From assembly GCA_965649765.1 (NCBI GenBank), contig OZ287753.1, positions 12,524,001-12,588,000 of the forward strand: a stretch of DNA of 64,000 nucleotides, written 5' to 3'. Of the stretch, positions 8,478 to 64,000 are shown in pieces. Both the position numbers and the translations under genes were made by a program. How positions within the stretch are numbered: the stretch's first letter is position 1; every line of letters begins with the position of its first letter. The stretch comes from Bispira polyomma. Lineage: Eukaryota. Under the pieces are notes generated by a model. That model was not told the DNA's origin. It searched no databases and saw only the letters and a program-made list of their open reading frames with translations.

Positions 8478-9246
8478 TCACAAGGCAGTTAATTCATCTG
8501 TGTCCTCTGGCGGCATCTTGTTTATAGGCGAGTTGGAATTATGGCTGTTCGTGTACATGATCGAATGGTTAGTCCCATTGCAGTTGACACTAAAATAGAG
8601 GGCGCTATTGTTCCGGGTGACTGAGGTGCTCCTTTTTTTGCCGCTTGCACACTTCACCAGCCGCTTGAAGCCGTGTCGGAACTTCTTGCTGAAGAAGCAG
8701 TAGATGACAGGGTTGACGCAAGAGTTTGAGGAGCCGAGCCACTGGGCAACGGGCACGACAACTTGGGATACCAATGCGAACTCCAAGCCATTCTCGTTGA
8801 GCGGCTGGCCAAAGTCCATGCGCATGTTTACCATGTAGAGCGGAAGCCATGACAGCGAGAACAGGACTACCACAACAATCAGCATCTTTAGGGCCTTGAC
8901 CTTTGACCTGTAGATGACGGTGTTGGAGCTGTTCACCCCCGGGGCATTCCTGTGCCAGACCTTACAGCCGATGAGCAGGTAGCAGACGGAGATCAGGATC
9001 AGGGGCAGGGTGTAGCAGGTGAGGAAGATGGCCCCGAGGAAAAACCCCTTTTTCAACTCCTCCGAAGGCCAGAACTGGTCGCAGATGTAGATGGTCTGGA
9101 GCCGGGTAGACGTGTAGACCCGCTGCTCATAGTAAACTGCCCAAGGGGTCATGATCCCCCCAGCAAAGATCCAGATAAAGATGATAATAATCCGGGCAGC
9201 TTTCCTGGTCATACGGAACTTTAGCAGATGGCAGATGGCCAGGTAT
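8478..9246 (-). CDS. SIFaR: Neuropeptide GPCR (SIFamide/NPFF receptor family), terminal coding exon (end of TM3 DRY motif, TM4-TM7, C-tail)
   Basis: Acceptor ttttgtatcatcttcAG (AG at 9248-9247), then (R)YLAICH...; TM5 FLTCYTLPLILISVCY, TM6 FSLSWLP, TM7 PVAQWLGSSNSCVNPVIY (NPxxY; the P.AQWLG.SNSC.NP signature is typical of SIFamide/NPFF receptors). GC-rich codon usage against AT-rich flanks. Stop at 8478-8480. Confidence 0.88.
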
Positions 9247-10179
9247 CTGAAGATGATACAAAATGACAAAATGATGGTATTTTAAAAAAATTATTTAGTT
9301 CTTGTACTAAGTACATGAAATGTTTCAGAAAAAAAATAATTGAACCTCCTGAAAAAAAATAGAAACAACATTTAATTAGTACAAACAATCACTAATGATA
9401 TAATTAAATTCTGACAGAAACCTTAGTCTGATATTTACATTTTTACATTGTAACACATCCTTATTATGTTTCAAAGTCACAAAAATTGGATAAATGCTGC
9501 AACTTTAATCATATTTGAACTGGGAACTAGTTTCCCCAGGTAATGTTTTCAAATCCTAAAACATCACCACAAAAACTCAAGATATATTGATTAATTAAAT
9601 TAATTACTACCATCTGACTGAATTGTCCAAAAGAAACACAAAACAGAGTCCCTTCACTTGTGTAAGTCAATTTTAACACTTAAAGCTGATAAGCAAATAT
9701 TGATAATTCAATTTTTCATTCTATTTGAAGAATTTTACTGGGCCATGTATTGCCAACCCAATTACTGGACATTCCAAGTGTACTGAATGTTAACACTTGT
9801 GATACTGATCTAAATATATGGTTTTCATATATTCAAACTCTATATCATTCACCTCTGAATACATTTTTGTAGTGGTTCATTTTTCAATTTTGTTTGAACC
9901 AATACCCCCAATGTTATTGGTAGCTGTCACAATCATGCAAGCCACTGCCCCCTCTCGTCCCTACTCAAAAGTGAATTGTAAATCCTTATTATGTGTTTTA
10001 ATAATGCTTTTTTGTCAACTCTCATATATGGTATTATTGAGAGCGGTTTTGCTCCCTTATCTGACCATTGTATGTTATTCTTGTTTTTTTTAACAATTGG
10101 TAGAATATAATAAAACGTAGAAGCTGAACTCCCAAACTATACCATGAAACCTTTTACACGGTATAATAGCCATGGTAAT

Positions 10180-44168: not shown

Positions 44169-44565
44169 GGAAATCATCATGACCAGCCATAGCTGGAACA
44201 GGGCATATAAGTTTAATGACAAGGAAATGATGGGGGCAGCAGACACTCATGACAACTATAGTAAGGACCTGGCATGTCATATGACTTTTGGTCATGATTA
44301 TTCTCAGTACATGTGTAATATCATAGATAAGATCATTGAAAAAGATACCATGTATGTTAAATGTAATAAAGTTCAAAAACCCAGAGATAATTGGAAAAAT
44401 ATGCACAAGGTGAGTTGTACTTCCGCTCCGCTCATTAACAACCTGGATGGGCTGGTGGGCCCTGACATGGAGGTTAATTCTTCTTCAAAAACGTTACCCA
44501 ATAAGGACATCGACAACCCTGATAAAAACACAGGTTTTATCAAACTTACTAGTACTCCATTTCAA
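44169..44565 (+). repeat. 397-bp inverted duplication of 45078-45474
   Basis: Reverse complement with only about 5 substitutions; explains ORF 44167-44586. Confidence 0.95.
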
Positions 44566-44582
44566 AGGGGTTGGTGGTGGGT

Positions 44583-46213
44583 ATAAAATTTTGTGTTGTC
44601 ATAACTGTCCCTACTGGCGTGATCATTTACTGAATCACCCAATGGGTGGGAAAGATTTAGAATGACTCTACGTTTATCCTGATCTTTAGGTCTGGTTAAC
44701 AAGGGGGAACAATGGTAATGTGGATCTGGAAGTATGTCCACTGGACCTAACATGGCCCCTTTAGACTTCTCTTTCTCAAGATATTGAACAATCGCATTTG
44801 AGTATTCAAGAGCCAAGTGATGATTAGTCACGTGTTTAGCTTGCAACTGATCTGCATTATATAATGACAACGGAAAACCGAATTTCAAGTATTGTGTAAC
44901 TATCTTATCTGGGTGATCCTGCGTTATTTTTTCCCATGCAGCGATATTTAGTTGAGACTTGATAGGTATTCTTGCCTGTCTGTAATTCGGAAGTCCTGTG
45001 TCTCTTATAATATTTGCAACATGCATAATGTTCTCAATACTATCTAGCAGAACCGAATCCCTGTCTGGTCCTACAAATTGAAATGGAGTACTAGTAAGTT
45101 TGATAAAACCTGTGTTTTTATCAGGGTTGTCGATGTCCTTATTGGGTAACGTTTTTGAAGAAGAATTAACCTCCATGTCAGGGCCCACCAGCCCATCCAG
45201 GTTGTTAATGAGCGGATCGAAAGTACAACTCACCTTGTGCATATTTTTCCAATTATTTCTGGGTTTTTGAACTTTATTACATTTAACATACATGGTATCT
45301 TTTTCAATGATCTTATCTATGATATTACACATGTACTGAGAATAATCATGACCAAAAGTCATATGACATGCCAGGTCCTTACTATAGTTGTCATGAGCGT
45401 CTGCTGCCCCCATCATTTCCTTGTCATTAAAGTTATATGCCCTGTTCCAGCTATGGCTGGTCATGATGATTTCCTGCCTTTCTACAACATCTAACCGAAA
45501 ACCTGGCATGGCATCCAAGCGTGTATAATTGAAAGTATTACCTGCCTGATCCCACTCCCTAGTGCAAAAACCTGACATGTCATGATAATTTGGAAACTGC
45601 AAGTATACCAAAACTTTAACCATGCCATTGCTGGAATAGTAATCATAGTAATCATAATTCATTACAGAAACTATACATTTAGTCTCAAAAGTGCCTCCAT
45701 ACCACAGCACACACTGTTTGTCATATTGTTTATCATCTGGTCTCTGAACATGACAATAGCCATGTCTATAATTAAACCCGTCTACATCAAACAGAAAGTT
45801 ATTATTACCATTGCTATGGTAGCCTAATTGGGTAAATTCAAATTTTTGTGATATTTCCACAATTTGATTTTCCTTTCTTGGGAAATCTCCTCTGCTACCC
45901 TGCAAATTTCCCTTACAGTGTTTAATCATGTCTGTTTTCTTGTTAAACCTGTCATTGCCCTGTTCAGAGACACTAGGAATAGTGGTTTCACCATTTACAA
46001 TTATTTTTACATTTGTATTTTTATACTGCTATTTTTAACTATATGGGGCCCCTGTGGGGTCCTCTGTGATTCTTTTGAACCAACTAAACATATACTTTTT
46101 ACCTTATAGCTGTCGTCATTTCCAACATTATTATAATTACTGACTATATCTCTAGTACTCTTAAATAAACTGCACTCTCTGATAGTTCGTTTACTTGGTT
46201 GTCGATCTACTTC
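44583..46213 (-). pseudogene. pol N-terminal part of Ngaro-like copy 2 (unassigned domain + start of RT)
   Basis: ORF 45929-44562 homologous to 61236-62400 (FIGPDRDSV / FVGPDRDSV, PNY.QARIPIKSQLNI, YLKFGFPL). One frameshift in an A-run near 46020. Confidence 0.85.
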
Positions 46214-47070
46214 CTAACTGGGTGTCTGCTTGTCCGAGGATCTTTTGGTGACATTCGCCTTAACACATTTGAATTCTGGATGTGTGTTCTCCCTATTTGC
46301 TGAGCGAAAACAATGGTTACATATGTGGCGATATTGTCCGTGGCCGGACTCGTGGTTGCAAGTGCCGTTATTGTAAAATTTACAAACATTCTTGGGTTTT
46401 TGTGATGCCTGTGATGCCTGTGGGGCCTGCGCGACGTGGCCGTTAATCAGAGCCAGCTGCAATGTATTCATGCGATTTAGAGCCCACTGTGTAGAGTTCG
46501 ACCAATCCAGTCTACCCTCTTCCACCTCCTGCATGTTCAATGCCCAACCTGCTCTAACAGCTGGCCAGGGAAGAGAAGCCGAATCCCTCAGAGTATAAAT
46601 CATTTGGTACATCATGTGCCGCATGGTAGTGGCATCTGAGACTTGTACAATGTTAAATAACTGCCCGGCAGCCTACTGTGACAGTGAGAAGTCATCAAAG
46701 CTAGGTCGTTTCCGAGCAGTGCCTCCGATCCAGCCCTCGTTTGACCACCGAGATTGTGGATCAGACGTAATAACGTCTGTGGTGTTAAACCGACCGGATG
46801 TGTAGGAGAGGTTAATGGGGTCGAGTTACACGCACCTTTAAATTCCACCTTATCGAGCCGTCTATTATTTTCAGAATTTGCTGATTCCAGCCTTTTTGAA
46901 ATAGTCATTACGTCTGAAATACCATTCTCACCCGTCGCTGTCTGTGCTTCTGTCTCCTTTGTGATCCTAAGTTTCCTAACTACTGGATCTGTGCCTTTGG
47001 TTGTCCCGCGTTTAGAGGTCGTTTTCTTCTTGGATAACGGAACACTACCTGGTGTTTTCGTCTTCCCCAT
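46214..47070 (-). pseudogene. gag-like ORF1 of Ngaro-like copy 2 (about 270-bp internal deletion with frameshift, one stop)
   Basis: MGKTKTPGSVPL...DPVV...NSTPL then SGRFNTTD...LPWPAVR..WALNMQEVEEGRLDW...CKFYNNGTCNHESGHGQYRHICNHC..HPEFKC, homologous to 60099-61061. Confidence 0.85.
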
Positions 47071-58035: not shown

Positions 58036-59637
58036 TTAATTGTAATTGTAATTAGACTTTTATCGCGCTTAATCTCCCCTTAACAAAGGAGACTCTAAGG
58101 CGCACCAGCACAAAAGACAGTTATCCAATTTCCCAAATCAAGGGACAGAAAAAGGGTCAGCAACATAGAGCGCTCTGGGGGATGATTGAGATTAAGGTGG
58201 ATATGCTTTAGTGTACAAGTGGGTTTTAAGCTTCTTTCTAAAACAGGCTAGTGAGGGGGAAGCACGAATCACATCAGGAAGACCATTCCAAACAATGGGA
58301 GCATCAAAAGCAAAGCTGTGACCAAACTGTTTTACCGACTTTTGAGTAGATGGGTGGGACTTCAGAACAACAAGGAAATTACTACCACTCTGACTACATC
58401 TGGTATTGTAGGAACTACTGTAAGTGGAAAGATATGGGGCAAAATACTTTGGAAACCCAGTGTAGAGAAACTTATAAACAAGTGTAGCTGTCTTAAACAC
58501 TGAATGCTGTTCAACAGGGAGCCAATGCAATTTCTTAAGAACAGGAGTTGTACTAGTGTATCGACTGGTGTTTGACACAATTCTAGCTGCACTATTTTGA
58601 ATGCATTGTAATTTGCTTAAATTAAACTTTGAGAGACTCCTGAAAAGTGAATTGCAGTAATCCAGTCTACTACTGACAAAAGCATTGGCCACAAGTATAG
58701 AAGCATCATAAGTGAGAAACCGTCTGACACGTCTAAAGTCACGGAGTTGCATAAAACAGCTTTTGCAGACACTCTCAACGTGTTTAGAGAAAGAAAAGTC
58801 AGAGTCAAACCATACACCCAGGTTCTTGACAGAATCAGCTGGACTGAAAGGGCTACCCAGGATGTCAACTGGAAATAATGCTTTCAACTTATCTCTCTGT
58901 TGTTTTGAGCCAAAGATTATGAACTCAGTCTTGTCGGGATTAAGTTTGAGTTTACCAGTTGACATCCACTCTTTCACATCGTCAAGGCACCTGTTCAATT
59001 GTTCAAAGGCAGTAGATGTGTTTTTATGGGATAGGTGCACATAAATTTGGGTATCATCTGCATAAAAATGAAACTTTATTCCTGTGTATTTGCCAATAAC
59101 CAATCTGAGAGGAGCAGTGTATAATGAGAACAACAGAGGGCCCAAAACAGAACCTTGAGGGACACCAAACAAGAGTTTACAAAGATCGGACAGAGTAGAG
59201 CCAATTTTTATCGACTGATAACGATCAGTTAAGTAGGAAGTGAACCATTTAAGAACAGAGCCCGTAACTCCAAACCAAGTCTGAAGACAACTGAGAAGCG
59301 TGGAATGATCAATGGTGTCAAAGGCAGCAGAGAGTTTGAGCAATACCAGGGAAGTAGGTTCCCCTCTTGACAAAGATAAGTGAACTTCATTTTTTATAGA
59401 CAGAAGAGCTGTCTCAGTCGCATGACCAGTTTTATACGCAGACTGGTATGGGTTGTCTAAGTCGTGGACAAAGATGTGATCTAACAGTTGCCTAGCAACC
59501 ATGCGTTCAACCAGTTTTGATATGAAACTAAGACCAGATACAGGGCGATAATTCTTCAGGTCATCAACAGGAAGAGAAGCCTTCTTAATAAGAGGATTAA
59601 CCACATCTGTTTTAAAACCATCAGGTACATGTCCCTT
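58036..59637 (-). mobile_element. CR1/L2-type LINE (family C): RT half plus 3' tail, abutting the Ngaro-like element
   Basis: Open ORF 59604-58192 with NYRPVS, AAFDT, GVPQGSVLGPLLF, YADDTQ, KLNPDKTE, LDYCNS and LHWLP; tail hairpin and (AATTAC)n near 58036-58110. Confidence 0.93.
58192..59604 (-). pseudogene. LINE reverse transcriptase ORF (truncated; motif-A Asp replaced)
   Basis: 470 open codons, but no endonuclease domain, and LLKLSAAFD where LLDLSAAFD is expected. Confidence 0.8.
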
Positions 59638-59942
59638 CGTAAGTGTGCCCAGCAGTCCACTTTAGGGGACTGCTACCTCAGTTGACCCTCCTGTCCAAAT
59701 CCACTTTTGTAAAACTATTCTTGTTCTGAAAATTTTCCACCCCTTTTAATTAGGTATCCAATTAGTGAACAGACCCCCCTGAATTAGCATGTGCATTCCC
59801 TCACACATTCTCCATTTTGGAAAAGACATTTCAAGGGTAAACACCCATTTTATGAAAAATTTCATTAATTCAATTTACTGTGATATTTAAGTTTTATTTG
59901 TTTTTACATGAGTTTTAAGTATTACAGTGCGTGTTATACACT

Positions 59943-61061
59943 ATGGGAAGGACAAAGCAAACCAAAACGCCAAGTAGTGTGCCTTTAAAGAAGAAGACAT
60001 CTGCAGGTACACGTAAGGCAATAACAAAATCATCCGATCCGGTGGTAAAGAACTTGAGTGTTCCATTATCACAAGGGGAGGCTACTAGGTAAGACGATAT
60101 GTTTGAGGTTATGAACATACTCCGGAAACTTGAGTCAGCTAATGCTTCTATAAGCAAGCGGCTAGATGAGGTCGAAACAAGGGGGTCGCGCAACTCCACA
60201 CCACTGAACTCACCCCCCTACCCGGCTAGAAACGACACAGTTCTGGATTTGGGTTTACATGCACAGCCACGGACCTCGGCTTTACTTCAACCTCAGGCTT
60301 TCACTCAACAGTTGCCAGGAATCCCTCCGGTGAGGGCGCATATGGACTACCAACGGGATGCCATTATACCCCGACCTGACGTCCTTAAGTCAATACCTGA
60401 AGTAACAGCAGCGGTTAACCAGAGACTGGCTGCGTATGATATACAACTCCGCCAGGACCTATCTCAAGGTAAGCCATCTTTGTGCCAGAAATCCGGCAGA
60501 TTTAATACCACGGACATTTGCAGTGCTGACCCTCAGTCTCGCTGGGCCAACGAAGGCTGGCTCGGTGGAACTGCACGGAAGCGTCCTCAGTACGACGAGC
60601 TATCTCTCCCCCAGTGGGCTGCTGGCCAATTATTTAACATTGCTCAAGTATCTGATAATACGGTGATTCGACAGATGCTTAACCAGGTAATTTTCTCACT
60701 GAGGGATGCAGCCTCCCTCCCCTGGCCGACTGTCAGATCTGCATGGGCCCTGAACATGCAGGAAGTGGAGGAGGGACGGCTTGAATGGGATAACACTACT
60801 CAATGGGCCCTAAACAGGCTTAGCACTTCCCAGCTAGTGCTCGCTAATTCTCAGGTAACACAGTCATCACAGAAACCAAAAACAGTCTGCAAATATTACA
60901 ATAATGGTACTTGTTCACATGAGAATGATCACAGCCAGTACAGGCATATTTGCAGTCATTGTCATCGCGTGCTAAACAGAGATAGTAATCATCCGGAGTT
61001 CAAGTGTGTTAAGGCCAATTCTGCAAAACGTACAACTGATGTCAAGTCATCTACCAGTTAG
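59943..61061 (+). CDS. gag-like ORF1 (premature TAA at 60090-60092)
   Basis: ATG at 59943 (MGRTKQTKTPSSVPLKKK..DPVV) matches the copy-2 N-terminus and is in frame with ORF 60099-61061; C-terminal CKYYNNGTCSHENDHSQYRHICSHC..HPEFKC. Confidence 0.82.
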
Positions 61062-63602
61062 GGATCTCCTGTACGACCAAATGAACGAACAATCAGAGAG
61101 TGCAGTGCTTGTAATAGTAGTAATGGTGAAACTAAAGTTTGTCAGTTTAATGTCTGTAGTCTGAGGAATATAACTAGGAGTGTCGATAAATGTCAGGTTA
61201 GATTTGCAGAGGAGTATCAGAAAGCAGATGTTAGATTGGTGGCGCAGGAACTTGCTAATGATAATATATATATGTCAGATAACAGTGACCAGATAACATC
61301 TTCTCAGTATAACAGTACTAGCATAAACAAGTGCAATATAATCAGGGGATGTTCATGGCATAACATAATAGTATACTTAAAATTCCACAACTTTCAAGAC
61401 ATGTCAGGTTTCTGTTATTTGTCATTTGACAGCAGTACTAGTACTTATACCTACAATCACATTGGCAATGGTCCAAGTTTCCCTATTAGGGTAAACGGAA
61501 ATCAAACACTGCAAATGACAGTGCATAAAAGGCACACTGTGAGTACACATTCAGCATTGGCAGTACTGGAGGCAAATAATACTTACTTTAACTACAAAAG
61601 AGACCTGATATGTTGGGAAAGCTTGGGTTATGATTATACTCAATTTATTCATGATATTATTGATGAAATTGTCATGCAGGATAATGTCAAAAGATATAAA
61701 ACAAAATTAAATGTATGCGATAATAAACTAAACGACTATGAGAATGCAAAGGTGAGTAACAACTCCGTCCGTGATTACAATGTTCACTTTGTGGAGGGGT
61801 TGGGCAACCTTCACACAGCTACCATTTCTTCTACGAAAACTAAGGACTTTACTGATATCTCAGACAGCTCTAAACACATTGGTTTTATTAAACTTGTTGA
61901 ACAAAAATTCAACTTCATCGGACCTGACAGGGATTCGGTCGATATTGTTGACATTACTCAGATGTGCAAAGTTGCAAACATTATTAGGAAAACGAGAGTT
62001 CCAAATTATAAACAAGCTCGAATTCCAATAAAATCTCAGTTAAACATAGATGTCTGGGAGAGAATAACCAGACATCACCCTGATAAGATTATTACTCAGT
62101 ACTTAAAATTCGGGTTTCCTCTCTTACTTGACAACCCCGATCAGCTTCAGTGTAAAGAGGTAACTAATCACCACTCTGCTTTACAGCACACAGAAGCAAT
62201 TGTAGAATATCTTAAGAAAGAACAGCATAAGGGTGCCATGTTAGGCCCAGTTCGAGAGATTCCCGACTCTCACTTTCACTGCTCACCTTTACTTACTAGG
62301 CCAAAGGACTCAAATAAATGTTAAGTCATACTTAATTTATCATACCCCAAAGGTCAATCAGTTAACGACAACGTTAATAGGGAAATTTTTGACAATACAA
62401 AATTTCTTTTAAAATTTCCAAACATAGATCACATTACTGATAGTATTAGGTCTACACTTGATCCAGTCATGTTTAAGGTCGACGTAGCTCGCGCTTTTAG
62501 AAATTTAAGGGTAGACCCAGTAGATAGCTTAAAATTAGGCATAAAACATGGTAACAGTTACTTCATGGACGCGGCGGTCGCATTCGGCTGGGCTCATGGA
62601 AGCGCGGCTTTTCAGCGTTGCTCGGACATAATTTCTGACCATATGGCCACTTTAGGTTTCAACTTATTCTGCTATATCGACGACTACATTTGCGTATGTT
62701 CTAAAGCTGGTGCCAGCAGGGGATTTGATATTCTCTGTAATTTACTCAGTGAGTTAGGTCTCCCTATCAATCAGGACAAGGTCAGCTCCCCTGACACACA
62801 TGTAACTTACTTGGGGATAGATATCAACATTTCAGCTGGAACCATTAGTATTACCCCTGGAAAAATCACACAAATTTACAACATCTGCGTTGAGGCCAGG
62901 AGTAAGTCATGGCTTTCACGTAGCAGATTTCAATCAATCCTAGGCAGTTTACTGTACGTTCACAAATGTGTGAAACCAGCTAGGTGTTTTATTAATAGAC
63001 TCTTATCAGTGTTCAGAGCTTCACCTAACGCCAAAAGGTTCAAGGTCACAGACAACATTAAAATAGACTTAGATTGGTTTATACATTTTCTAGTATCTTA
63101 CAATGGAATTACATATATTGACCCAGTGGACATTAAGTCAGGACAGGAATTACACCTTGATGCTTGCCTTTCTGGACTGGGAGCCATCTGGGGTTCTGAA
63201 GTTTACCATACCCCTGTTTATAATATATATCAACAAGATTTGGCTATAACTCAGTTAGAGATGCTTAATATCGTTATCGCTTTGAAAGTGTGGGGCAGGG
63301 ATTGGGCTCACCAAAAAGTATTATTAAACTGTGATAACATGGCCGTGGTTTTGGTCGTACAGACAGGTAAAACTAGGGATGCCTTCCTGGCTACATGTAT
63401 AATGAATATTTGGCTTATCACCTCCACACTGGACATAACTCTTAGGATACAGCACATTAGGGGTAAGGAGAATATATATGCAGATGCACTTTCGCGTATG
63501 TATTCAAACAACCCACCTAGACCAGAAATCATGCAACTTCTCAATGCTTATACCTGTAAACCGGTTCCTTTAAAATTATTTAACCTTGATTATAACATAT
63601 GA
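61062..63602 (+). CDS. pol: unassigned domain + reverse transcriptase + RNase H (premature TAA at 62322-62324)
   Basis: Same frame as gag directly after TAG 61059-61061. ORFs 61236-62324 and 62469-63602 are one frame with KC*VILNLS where copy 2 has KRRVILNLS. Confidence 0.87.
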
Positions 63603-64000
63603 TTTCAGGTGCTACTGCTTCATCACAACAACTGGGGTTAGCAGCCATCTCAAGAATCAATGCAGCTTTGAGACCTTCAACTACTTCAGCTTATGTCAGT
63701 CAATTTAGAACATTTCTTGCTTTTTTGCAATATGCTGCAATTCAAAACATTACTGTACATTCTATTCTGGCTTTTCTGGAATATTTAGTTCAAAATAACA
63801 TTTCTCCAAAAGTCATAAATAACTACATCTCAGCACTGAAATTCATGTCTGCAAAATACCACTTGGATACACAAGCATTCCAGCACAACTCTATATCACT
63901 CTTTACACGTAGTCTTGCCTTGAATTCTTCCTTTAGACCTGCAGTCAAAGGGATTTTCCAGATCAAACAACTACTACAAATATCACAGGTGTGTAGCATT
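63599..64000 (+). CDS. Tyrosine recombinase, N-terminal (core-binding) part, open to the window end
   Basis: MISGATASSQQLGLAAISRINAALRPSTTSAYVSQFRTFLAFLQY...ILAFLEYLVQNNISPKVINNYISALKF...; 134 open codons; the ATG overlaps the pol stop (ATGA). Confidence 0.85.
   Translation, partial: MISGATASSQQLGLAAISRINAALRPSTTSAYVSQFRTFLAFLQYAAIQNITVHSILAFLEYLVQNNISPKVINNYISALKFMSAKYHLDTQAFQHNSISLFTRSLALNSSFRPAVKGIFQIKQLLQISQVCSI

Follow-up and report, generated by a model that had tools for sequence, protein, structure and literature searches.

A 105-aa segment that the initial annotation had marked between gag and the reverse transcriptase (RT) of two likely, though provisionally classified, Ngaro-like retrotransposon copies is a real protein domain, which is larger and more general than first reported and is very probably not a protease. 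We studied it in a stretch of 64,000 nucleotides of contig OZ287753.1 from Bispira polyomma (hereafter, the window), and sequence comparisons indicate that it is a constitutive, vertically inherited and fast-drifting part of the Pol protein in this clade. Largely by elimination, we tentatively favor, at somewhat less than an even chance, the reading that this N-terminal domain is non-catalytic and serves Pol as a module for docking or assembly in an Ngaro-like clade.

The two copies that carry the domain (copy 1 and copy 2, Table 1) are decayed by stops, a deletion and frameshifts, and the catalytic part of the tyrosine recombinase (YR) of copy 1 lies beyond the window end. The ORFs of copy 1 are co-oriented with little overlap and follow the order gag, RT/RNase H and YR, and its matches to RVT_1 (E 2.5e-10) and an RNase H-like family in pol, as well as to Phage_int_SAM in the YR ORF, place it in the order DIRS of YR retrotransposons, which carry a tyrosine recombinase instead of a DDE integrase. 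The label 'gag' is given by position in copy 1, whose gag-like ORF is 66% identical to that of copy 2 and had no match in Pfam. A methyltransferase (MT) after RNase H is absent from copy 1, where pol ends at 63602; in 30 of the 31 relatives described below Pol likewise ends 29–35 aa past the last RNase H motif (the remaining one being frameshifted), and no methyltransferase family match was obtained in the 8 of these 31 that were scanned. No long direct repeat of the split A1-ORFs-B1A2B2 type was found in the surviving sequence, in which copy 1 runs off the window and copy 2 lacks its 3' part. Because a PAT derivative lacking the MT has been described (PMC4157794), the two structural marks of Ngaro that were observed, absence of an MT and ORF order, make the element a likely Ngaro-like YR retrotransposon on a provisional basis.

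Table 1. Positions of the retrotransposon features in the window.
Feature	Coordinates	Strand	Remarks
gag-like ORF, copy 1	59943..61061	+	premature TAA 60090-60092; Cys/His cluster near C-terminus; terminal TAG in the pol frame
gag/pol junction, copy 1	61054..61106	+	CCAGT-TAG-G, then 30-nt block 61077-61106; copy 2 counterpart 46221-46169(-)
pol, copy 1	61062..63602	+	variable linker, domain, spacer, RT extension from ~61870, RT (YIDD), RNase H; premature TAA 62322-62324
Domain, copy 1	61305..61685 (core 61359-61673)	+	predicted five-strand beta module and two-helix hairpin; E 5.4e-14 with profile from the 31 relatives alone
Conserved residues of domain, copy 1	Tyr 61635-61637; Asp 61602-61604, 61662-61664	+	
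Tyrosine recombinase ORF, N-terminal SAM-like part, copy 1	63596..64000 (cut by window end)	+	Phage_int_SAM_1 E 7.5e-09
gag-like ORF, copy 2	46214..47070	-	~270-nt internal deletion, frameshift, stop; terminal TAG in the frame of the pol start
pol, copy 2	44565..46213	-	frameshifted in 5' linker; domain and RT N-terminus; truncated
Domain, copy 2 (sequence folded)	45294..45692 (core 45620-45306)	-	profile E 5.8e-16; AlphaFold pLDDT 87.2, pTM 0.56
Conserved residues of domain, copy 2	Tyr 45344-45342; Asp 45377-45375, 45317-45315	-	
Inverted duplicate of 45078-45474(-)	44169..44565	+	397 nt, 98.7%; C-terminal half of domain; truncates copy 2 inside RT

Several further features were observed around these ORFs. 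The arms of the inverted duplication lie 512 nt apart, and this recent event resembles a fold-back or template switch. A Cys/His cluster at the gag C-terminus (60885-61010(+) and 46390-46260(-)) is common to both copies, with the spacings C-x7-C-x5-H... and C-x2-C-x9-H-x4-C, and is likely a double zinc finger, though one without a match in Pfam. Non-coding similarity of ~130 nt upstream of both gag starts (59660-59790(+) and 47300-47170(-)) probably represents the A1 repeat region at the 5' terminus of each element. An acceptor-like TTTCAG/G is seen where the YR frame begins (63603-63610(+)) and a donor-like AAG/GTAAGC inside gag (~60468-60477(+)), both picked out by eye from their likeness to the splice consensus; YR expression might involve a spliced RNA. 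A LINE-type RT ORF (58192-59661(-), RVT_1 E 3.2e-30) abuts copy 1 at its 5' end, and the stretch 58037-58653 has an 85% related fragment at 6053-5438. A rhodopsin-family seven-transmembrane receptor ORF at 8478-9281(-) (7tm_1 E 7.2e-32) indicates that the host is an animal.

The cores of the two domain copies are open frames, and their gap-free alignment has 35 of 105 residues identical (BLASTP E 4e-24), in agreement with the ~33% counted by hand in the initial annotation, and their local alignment score of 187 compares with a maximum of 57 among 2000 shuffles. Nucleotide identity between the copies is 0.59, 0.55 and 0.41 at codon positions 1, 2 and 3, respectively, synonymous differences are saturated (pS 0.73) at a pN of 0.43, and the remaining five frames contain 2–14 stops per copy across the domain. 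This drop at the third codon position, the excess of pS over pN and the stops in the other frames show that selection on the domain acts at the protein level, as had been proposed under the idea of selective maintenance. With respect to its surroundings, the domain is intermediate, as the gag C-terminus and the RT N-terminus each share 67% amino acid identity between the copies, whereas the linkers share 17% (5') and 28% (3'). The latter two values come from gapped alignments of linkers that had been described as unalignable and N/S/D-rich; across 33 sequences, the 5' linker is N/S-rich and the 3' linker D/S/T-rich.

The domain starts ~20–24 aa upstream of the originally marked core, which adds one more beta-strand (start at 45692 in copy 2 and, by a weak match, near 61305 in copy 1), and its full span is ~125–133 aa. 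Within the inverted duplication, we found a third, partial copy comprising the C-terminal half (~44169-44343(+), profile E 1.5e-12, profile positions 70-124); after these three copies, the next-best of 2084 window segments reached an E of 1.6 with the profile from the 31 relatives. A diverged partial repeat suspected upstream of the domain in copy 2 did not hold up, its score of 21 being matched or beaten by 1790 of 2000 shuffles.

Direct searches with the domain sequence recovered no relatives owing to their low sensitivity, and relatives were instead gathered through the RT N-terminus among longer proteins, which yielded 31 matches out of 162 candidates. These 31 relatives are full-length Pol proteins from ENA (855–968 aa) that are 45–57% identical in the RT N-terminus, and our statements about the family cover relatives at least 45% identical in this region. 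The domain was present once per protein, consistently ahead of RT, in all 31 relatives found through RT. A search with a 33-sequence profile gave 12 matches among 3222 candidates, namely 3 source proteins and 9 new ones, and the latter were all pieces of the same Pol type, of which 7 run into the same RT extension and 2 end before it. In the 40 proteins in which it could be measured, the distance from the domain end to the conserved FxGP motif of the RT extension is 64–106 aa. This N-terminal extension itself comprises ~105 aa ahead of the Pfam RT match (~61870-62190(+); residues 295-400 of protein P0033) and follows the pattern D...K..GF...F.GPD...G.PNY..AR.P...LN...W, with 16 of 106 columns invariant in the 31 relatives. 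In addition, seven of the 31 relatives (P0005, P0007, P0009, P0010, P0011, P0014 and P0016), which form one clade of the RT tree, carry an extra predicted beta-hairpin motif ~35–50 aa upstream of the domain that has no match in the window copies.

The evolutionary history of the domain mirrors that of RT. When both trees were compared with copy 2 left out, 14 of the 19 well-supported splits of the RT tree were recovered in the domain tree, all 7 well-supported splits of the domain tree were present in the RT tree, and no strong conflict was seen. The rates differ, given that the domain tree is about three times longer than the RT tree (38.9 versus 12.3) and that the median pairwise identity is 21% for the domain and 53% for RT. 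It is because of its presence in every full-length relative and this agreement between the trees that we consider the domain a constitutive part of Pol, and the earlier idea of an accessory domain or captured fold is a poor fit to such a pattern of inheritance with RT.

The wider alignment redefined the conserved features of the domain. Most of the pattern deduced from two sequences (xxDMSGFC, T.H and DLxC) is not family-wide, and the family pattern reads V[YF][ILV]H, G[FY][YW] and C..P.G.L.V, followed by [YF].[ND][YF].[KRQ]D and Y..Y[MI]..IID.L. The sole invariant column is Tyr117 (in the numbering of the folded domain, as are the following), which was conserved in 33/33 sequences and in all 8 further matches covering this position (41/41) and is never replaced by Phe, whereas each of the other seven columns rich in aromatic residues contains a mixture of Y, F, H or W. 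Further conserved positions are Asn/Asp102 and Ile125 (32/33 each), Asp106 (D82 of the 105-aa core; 31/33) and Asp126 (D102 of the core; 28/33). Hydrophobic residues and Gly predominate among the slowest sites, and invariant Cys, His or Ser residues are lacking. Conservation is concentrated in the hairpin and the hydrophobic core, while the surface drifts. Both halves of the domain are net acidic, the hairpin in 29 of 33 sequences.

An AlphaFold model of the copy 2 domain based on the 33-sequence alignment (pLDDT 87, pTM 0.56) predicts five beta-strands and a two-helix hairpin. A helix of residues 117-132, predicted with high confidence, begins with Tyr117 where the hairpin turns, and helix 2 bears conserved hydrophobic residues over ~180 degrees of the helical wheel. 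Structural matches span either residues 1-81 or residues 81-133 but never both. Together, the high pLDDT, the pTM of 0.56 and these split matches fit two modules whose packing would not be fixed in the monomer model, although the low pTM may also be a mere product of the shallow 33-sequence alignment. Searches of Pfam, PHROGs and PDB sequences and four fold searches of the model gave no confident match, consistent with the domain not having been recognized at first sight; it is uncatalogued in these libraries and possibly represents an uncatalogued fold. In the ESM Atlas, the top feature matches (0.96) of residues 123-247 of P0033 were unnamed clusters, mostly from Basidiomycota, a fungal group described as holding Ngaro elements (PMC3783388); these clusters may represent remote relatives, or the signal may be a generic one.

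In both window copies, the TAG that ends gag lies in the pol frame and in the same context (CCAGT-TAG-G). The 30-nt block that follows (61077-61106 versus 46198-46169) is identical at 27 of 30 positions and at 9 of 10 third codon positions, while synonymous sites elsewhere are saturated. RNA folds of the two junctions had no hairpin in common. The TAG and the block are a candidate readthrough signal or possibly another cis signal, and readthrough of the gag TAG is suggested by just these two decayed copies; the predicted proteins of the relatives begin at a Met of their own. Our literature searches found no paper centered on readthrough in DIRS-order elements.

These observations can be arranged into a tentative account of the domain as a docking or assembly module. 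The domain sits in the place of the protease of LTR elements, between a variable linker and the acidic spacer of 64–106 aa that leads to RT-RNase H, and YR retrotransposons are described as having no protease (PMC3783388). Pol would be made as a Gag-Pol fusion through readthrough of the gag UAG and, lacking a protease, this fusion would remain one piece. The predicted curved five-strand beta module would be followed by the helical hairpin, the wide hydrophobic face of which would be covered by a partner, be it the domain's own sheet, a second domain copy, RT or Gag. Because such a face requires a partner to shield it, we propose that the module docks or self-associates and might thereby position or pair RT-RNase H in the ribonucleoprotein particle, with the hairpin presumably stapled by the invariant Tyr and by the Asp of the preceding helix. 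What speaks against a plain hydrophobic interface is that Asn/Asp102, Asp106, Asp126 and a Tyr that is never Phe exceed its needs.

A different partner is envisaged if the domain faces the host and binds a host protein so as to dampen silencing or direct the complex to a target, in which case its fast drift would reflect host conflict. Drift at about three times the RT level around a preserved core agrees with this idea, as does the acquisition of chromatin-related domains reported for YR and LTR retrotransposons (10.64898/2026.05.21.726589). We nevertheless consider it unlikely, given that no reader or enzyme family was matched and that the domain, unlike patchily distributed accessory domains, was never lost in the 31 relatives and showed no swapping between lineages. 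Doubtful to a somewhat greater degree is an OB-like nucleic-acid-binding module, whose beta part would bind element RNA or single-stranded cDNA and assist the transfer of strands from one split repeat to another. The closest known systems considered for comparison include small OB-like beta-barrels (eS28, Pf3 SSB and CusF) and the CYTH barrel.

It is improbable, yet would be of the greatest consequence, that the domain is a protein primer, that is, an analogue of the hepadnavirus terminal protein with an unrelated fold, in which the spacer would bring the hairpin to the RT active site and the Tyr117 hydroxyl would take the first nucleotide, resulting in protein-linked cDNA. This reading is attractive because the layout of domain, spacer, RT and RNase H is that of hepadnavirus P (10.1101/2022.02.16.480762) and because DIRS-1 is described as having no known primer (PMC7192593), although the same source proposes a 3' RNA hairpin for this role. 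Priming from Tyr arose in both hepadnaviruses and Abi polymerases (PMC7291194, PMC9508834), and the only invariant column of our domain is a Tyr on a net acidic hairpin, tethered by the spacer. However, the known priming tyrosines reside in long flexible loops (Y63 of HBV, PMC7291194; Y44 of AbiK, PMC9508834), whereas Tyr117 starts a predicted helix, and invariant tyrosines are common in this Pol: of 13 RT/RNase H columns with a Tyr majority, 7 have Tyr in 30 or more of the 31 relatives. Moreover, none of the 33 members matched the Pfam hepadnavirus terminal-protein family at E 0.1. A literature search on protein priming in DIRS retrotransposons found no paper. Near-invariant Tyr residues in the RT extension are alternative priming candidates.

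Very improbable is the atypical protease of the initial annotation, cutting a readthrough Gag-Pol by means of conserved C, H and D residues, as the position of the domain, the single frame shared by gag and pol and two well-conserved Asp are outweighed by flagged Cys and His residues that are kept in only 4–6 of 33 sequences (C19 4/33, H56 4/33, C85 6/33), by a D14 kept in 3/33 so that only D82 and D102 persist, by best Cys and His columns (22/33 and 18/33, respectively) that are both absent from the window copies, by a D[ST]G triplet that, in line with its reported absence, is found in 3 of 33 rows only, at unaligned positions, and by the predicted location of both conserved Asp on helices and not on a retropepsin-type loop. 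A cysteine or serine protease was rejected, as the invariant nucleophile and His are missing and all Cys, Ser and His columns reach at most 22/33.

At minimum, the domain is an uncatalogued one and a marker for classifying these elements. It also offers a handle on how Pol assembles and starts in YR retrotransposons, which have no protease, integrase or identified primer, and its one invariant Tyr and two Asp are direct mutational targets. The gain would be modest if the domain proves to be the docking module that we favor, and large if it primes DNA synthesis, as this would name the primer for a retrotransposon order without a determined one and constitute protein-primed reverse transcription in a eukaryotic transposon.

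Among known systems, the retropepsin of LTR retrotransposons and retroviruses resembles the domain in its location between gag and RT, its size of ~120 aa, its beta-rich nature and its C-terminal helix content, but the domain has no aligned D[ST]G and about one third of it is predicted to be a long helical hairpin. The hepadnavirus terminal protein is likewise N-terminal, is joined to RT and RNase H through a variable spacer and has a strictly kept tyrosine; yet it is described as consisting of helices and loops with the Tyr in a long loop (PMC7291194), whereas five strands and a hairpin in which a helix begins with the Tyr are predicted for our domain, so that the likeness is an analogy at most. 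Ngaro elements share with copy 1 the arrangement of gag, RT/RNase H and YR on one strand with almost no ORF overlap (PMC3266345, PMC4157794). An overlap of the Ngaro ORFs is reported for Xenopus (PMC9210276), whereas gag and pol occupy one frame split by a TAG here. No domain upstream of RT was described in the Ngaro literature that we searched, although the original Ngaro description, the 2015 YR-element review or Repbase could mention one. Ngaro pol is described with RT and RNase H only, to which Xenopus elements add an ORF for an SGNH hydrolase (PMC9210276, PMC3783388, PMC8547959), and the elements studied here differ from this description by ~300–400 aa ahead of the RT extension, inside which the domain is located.
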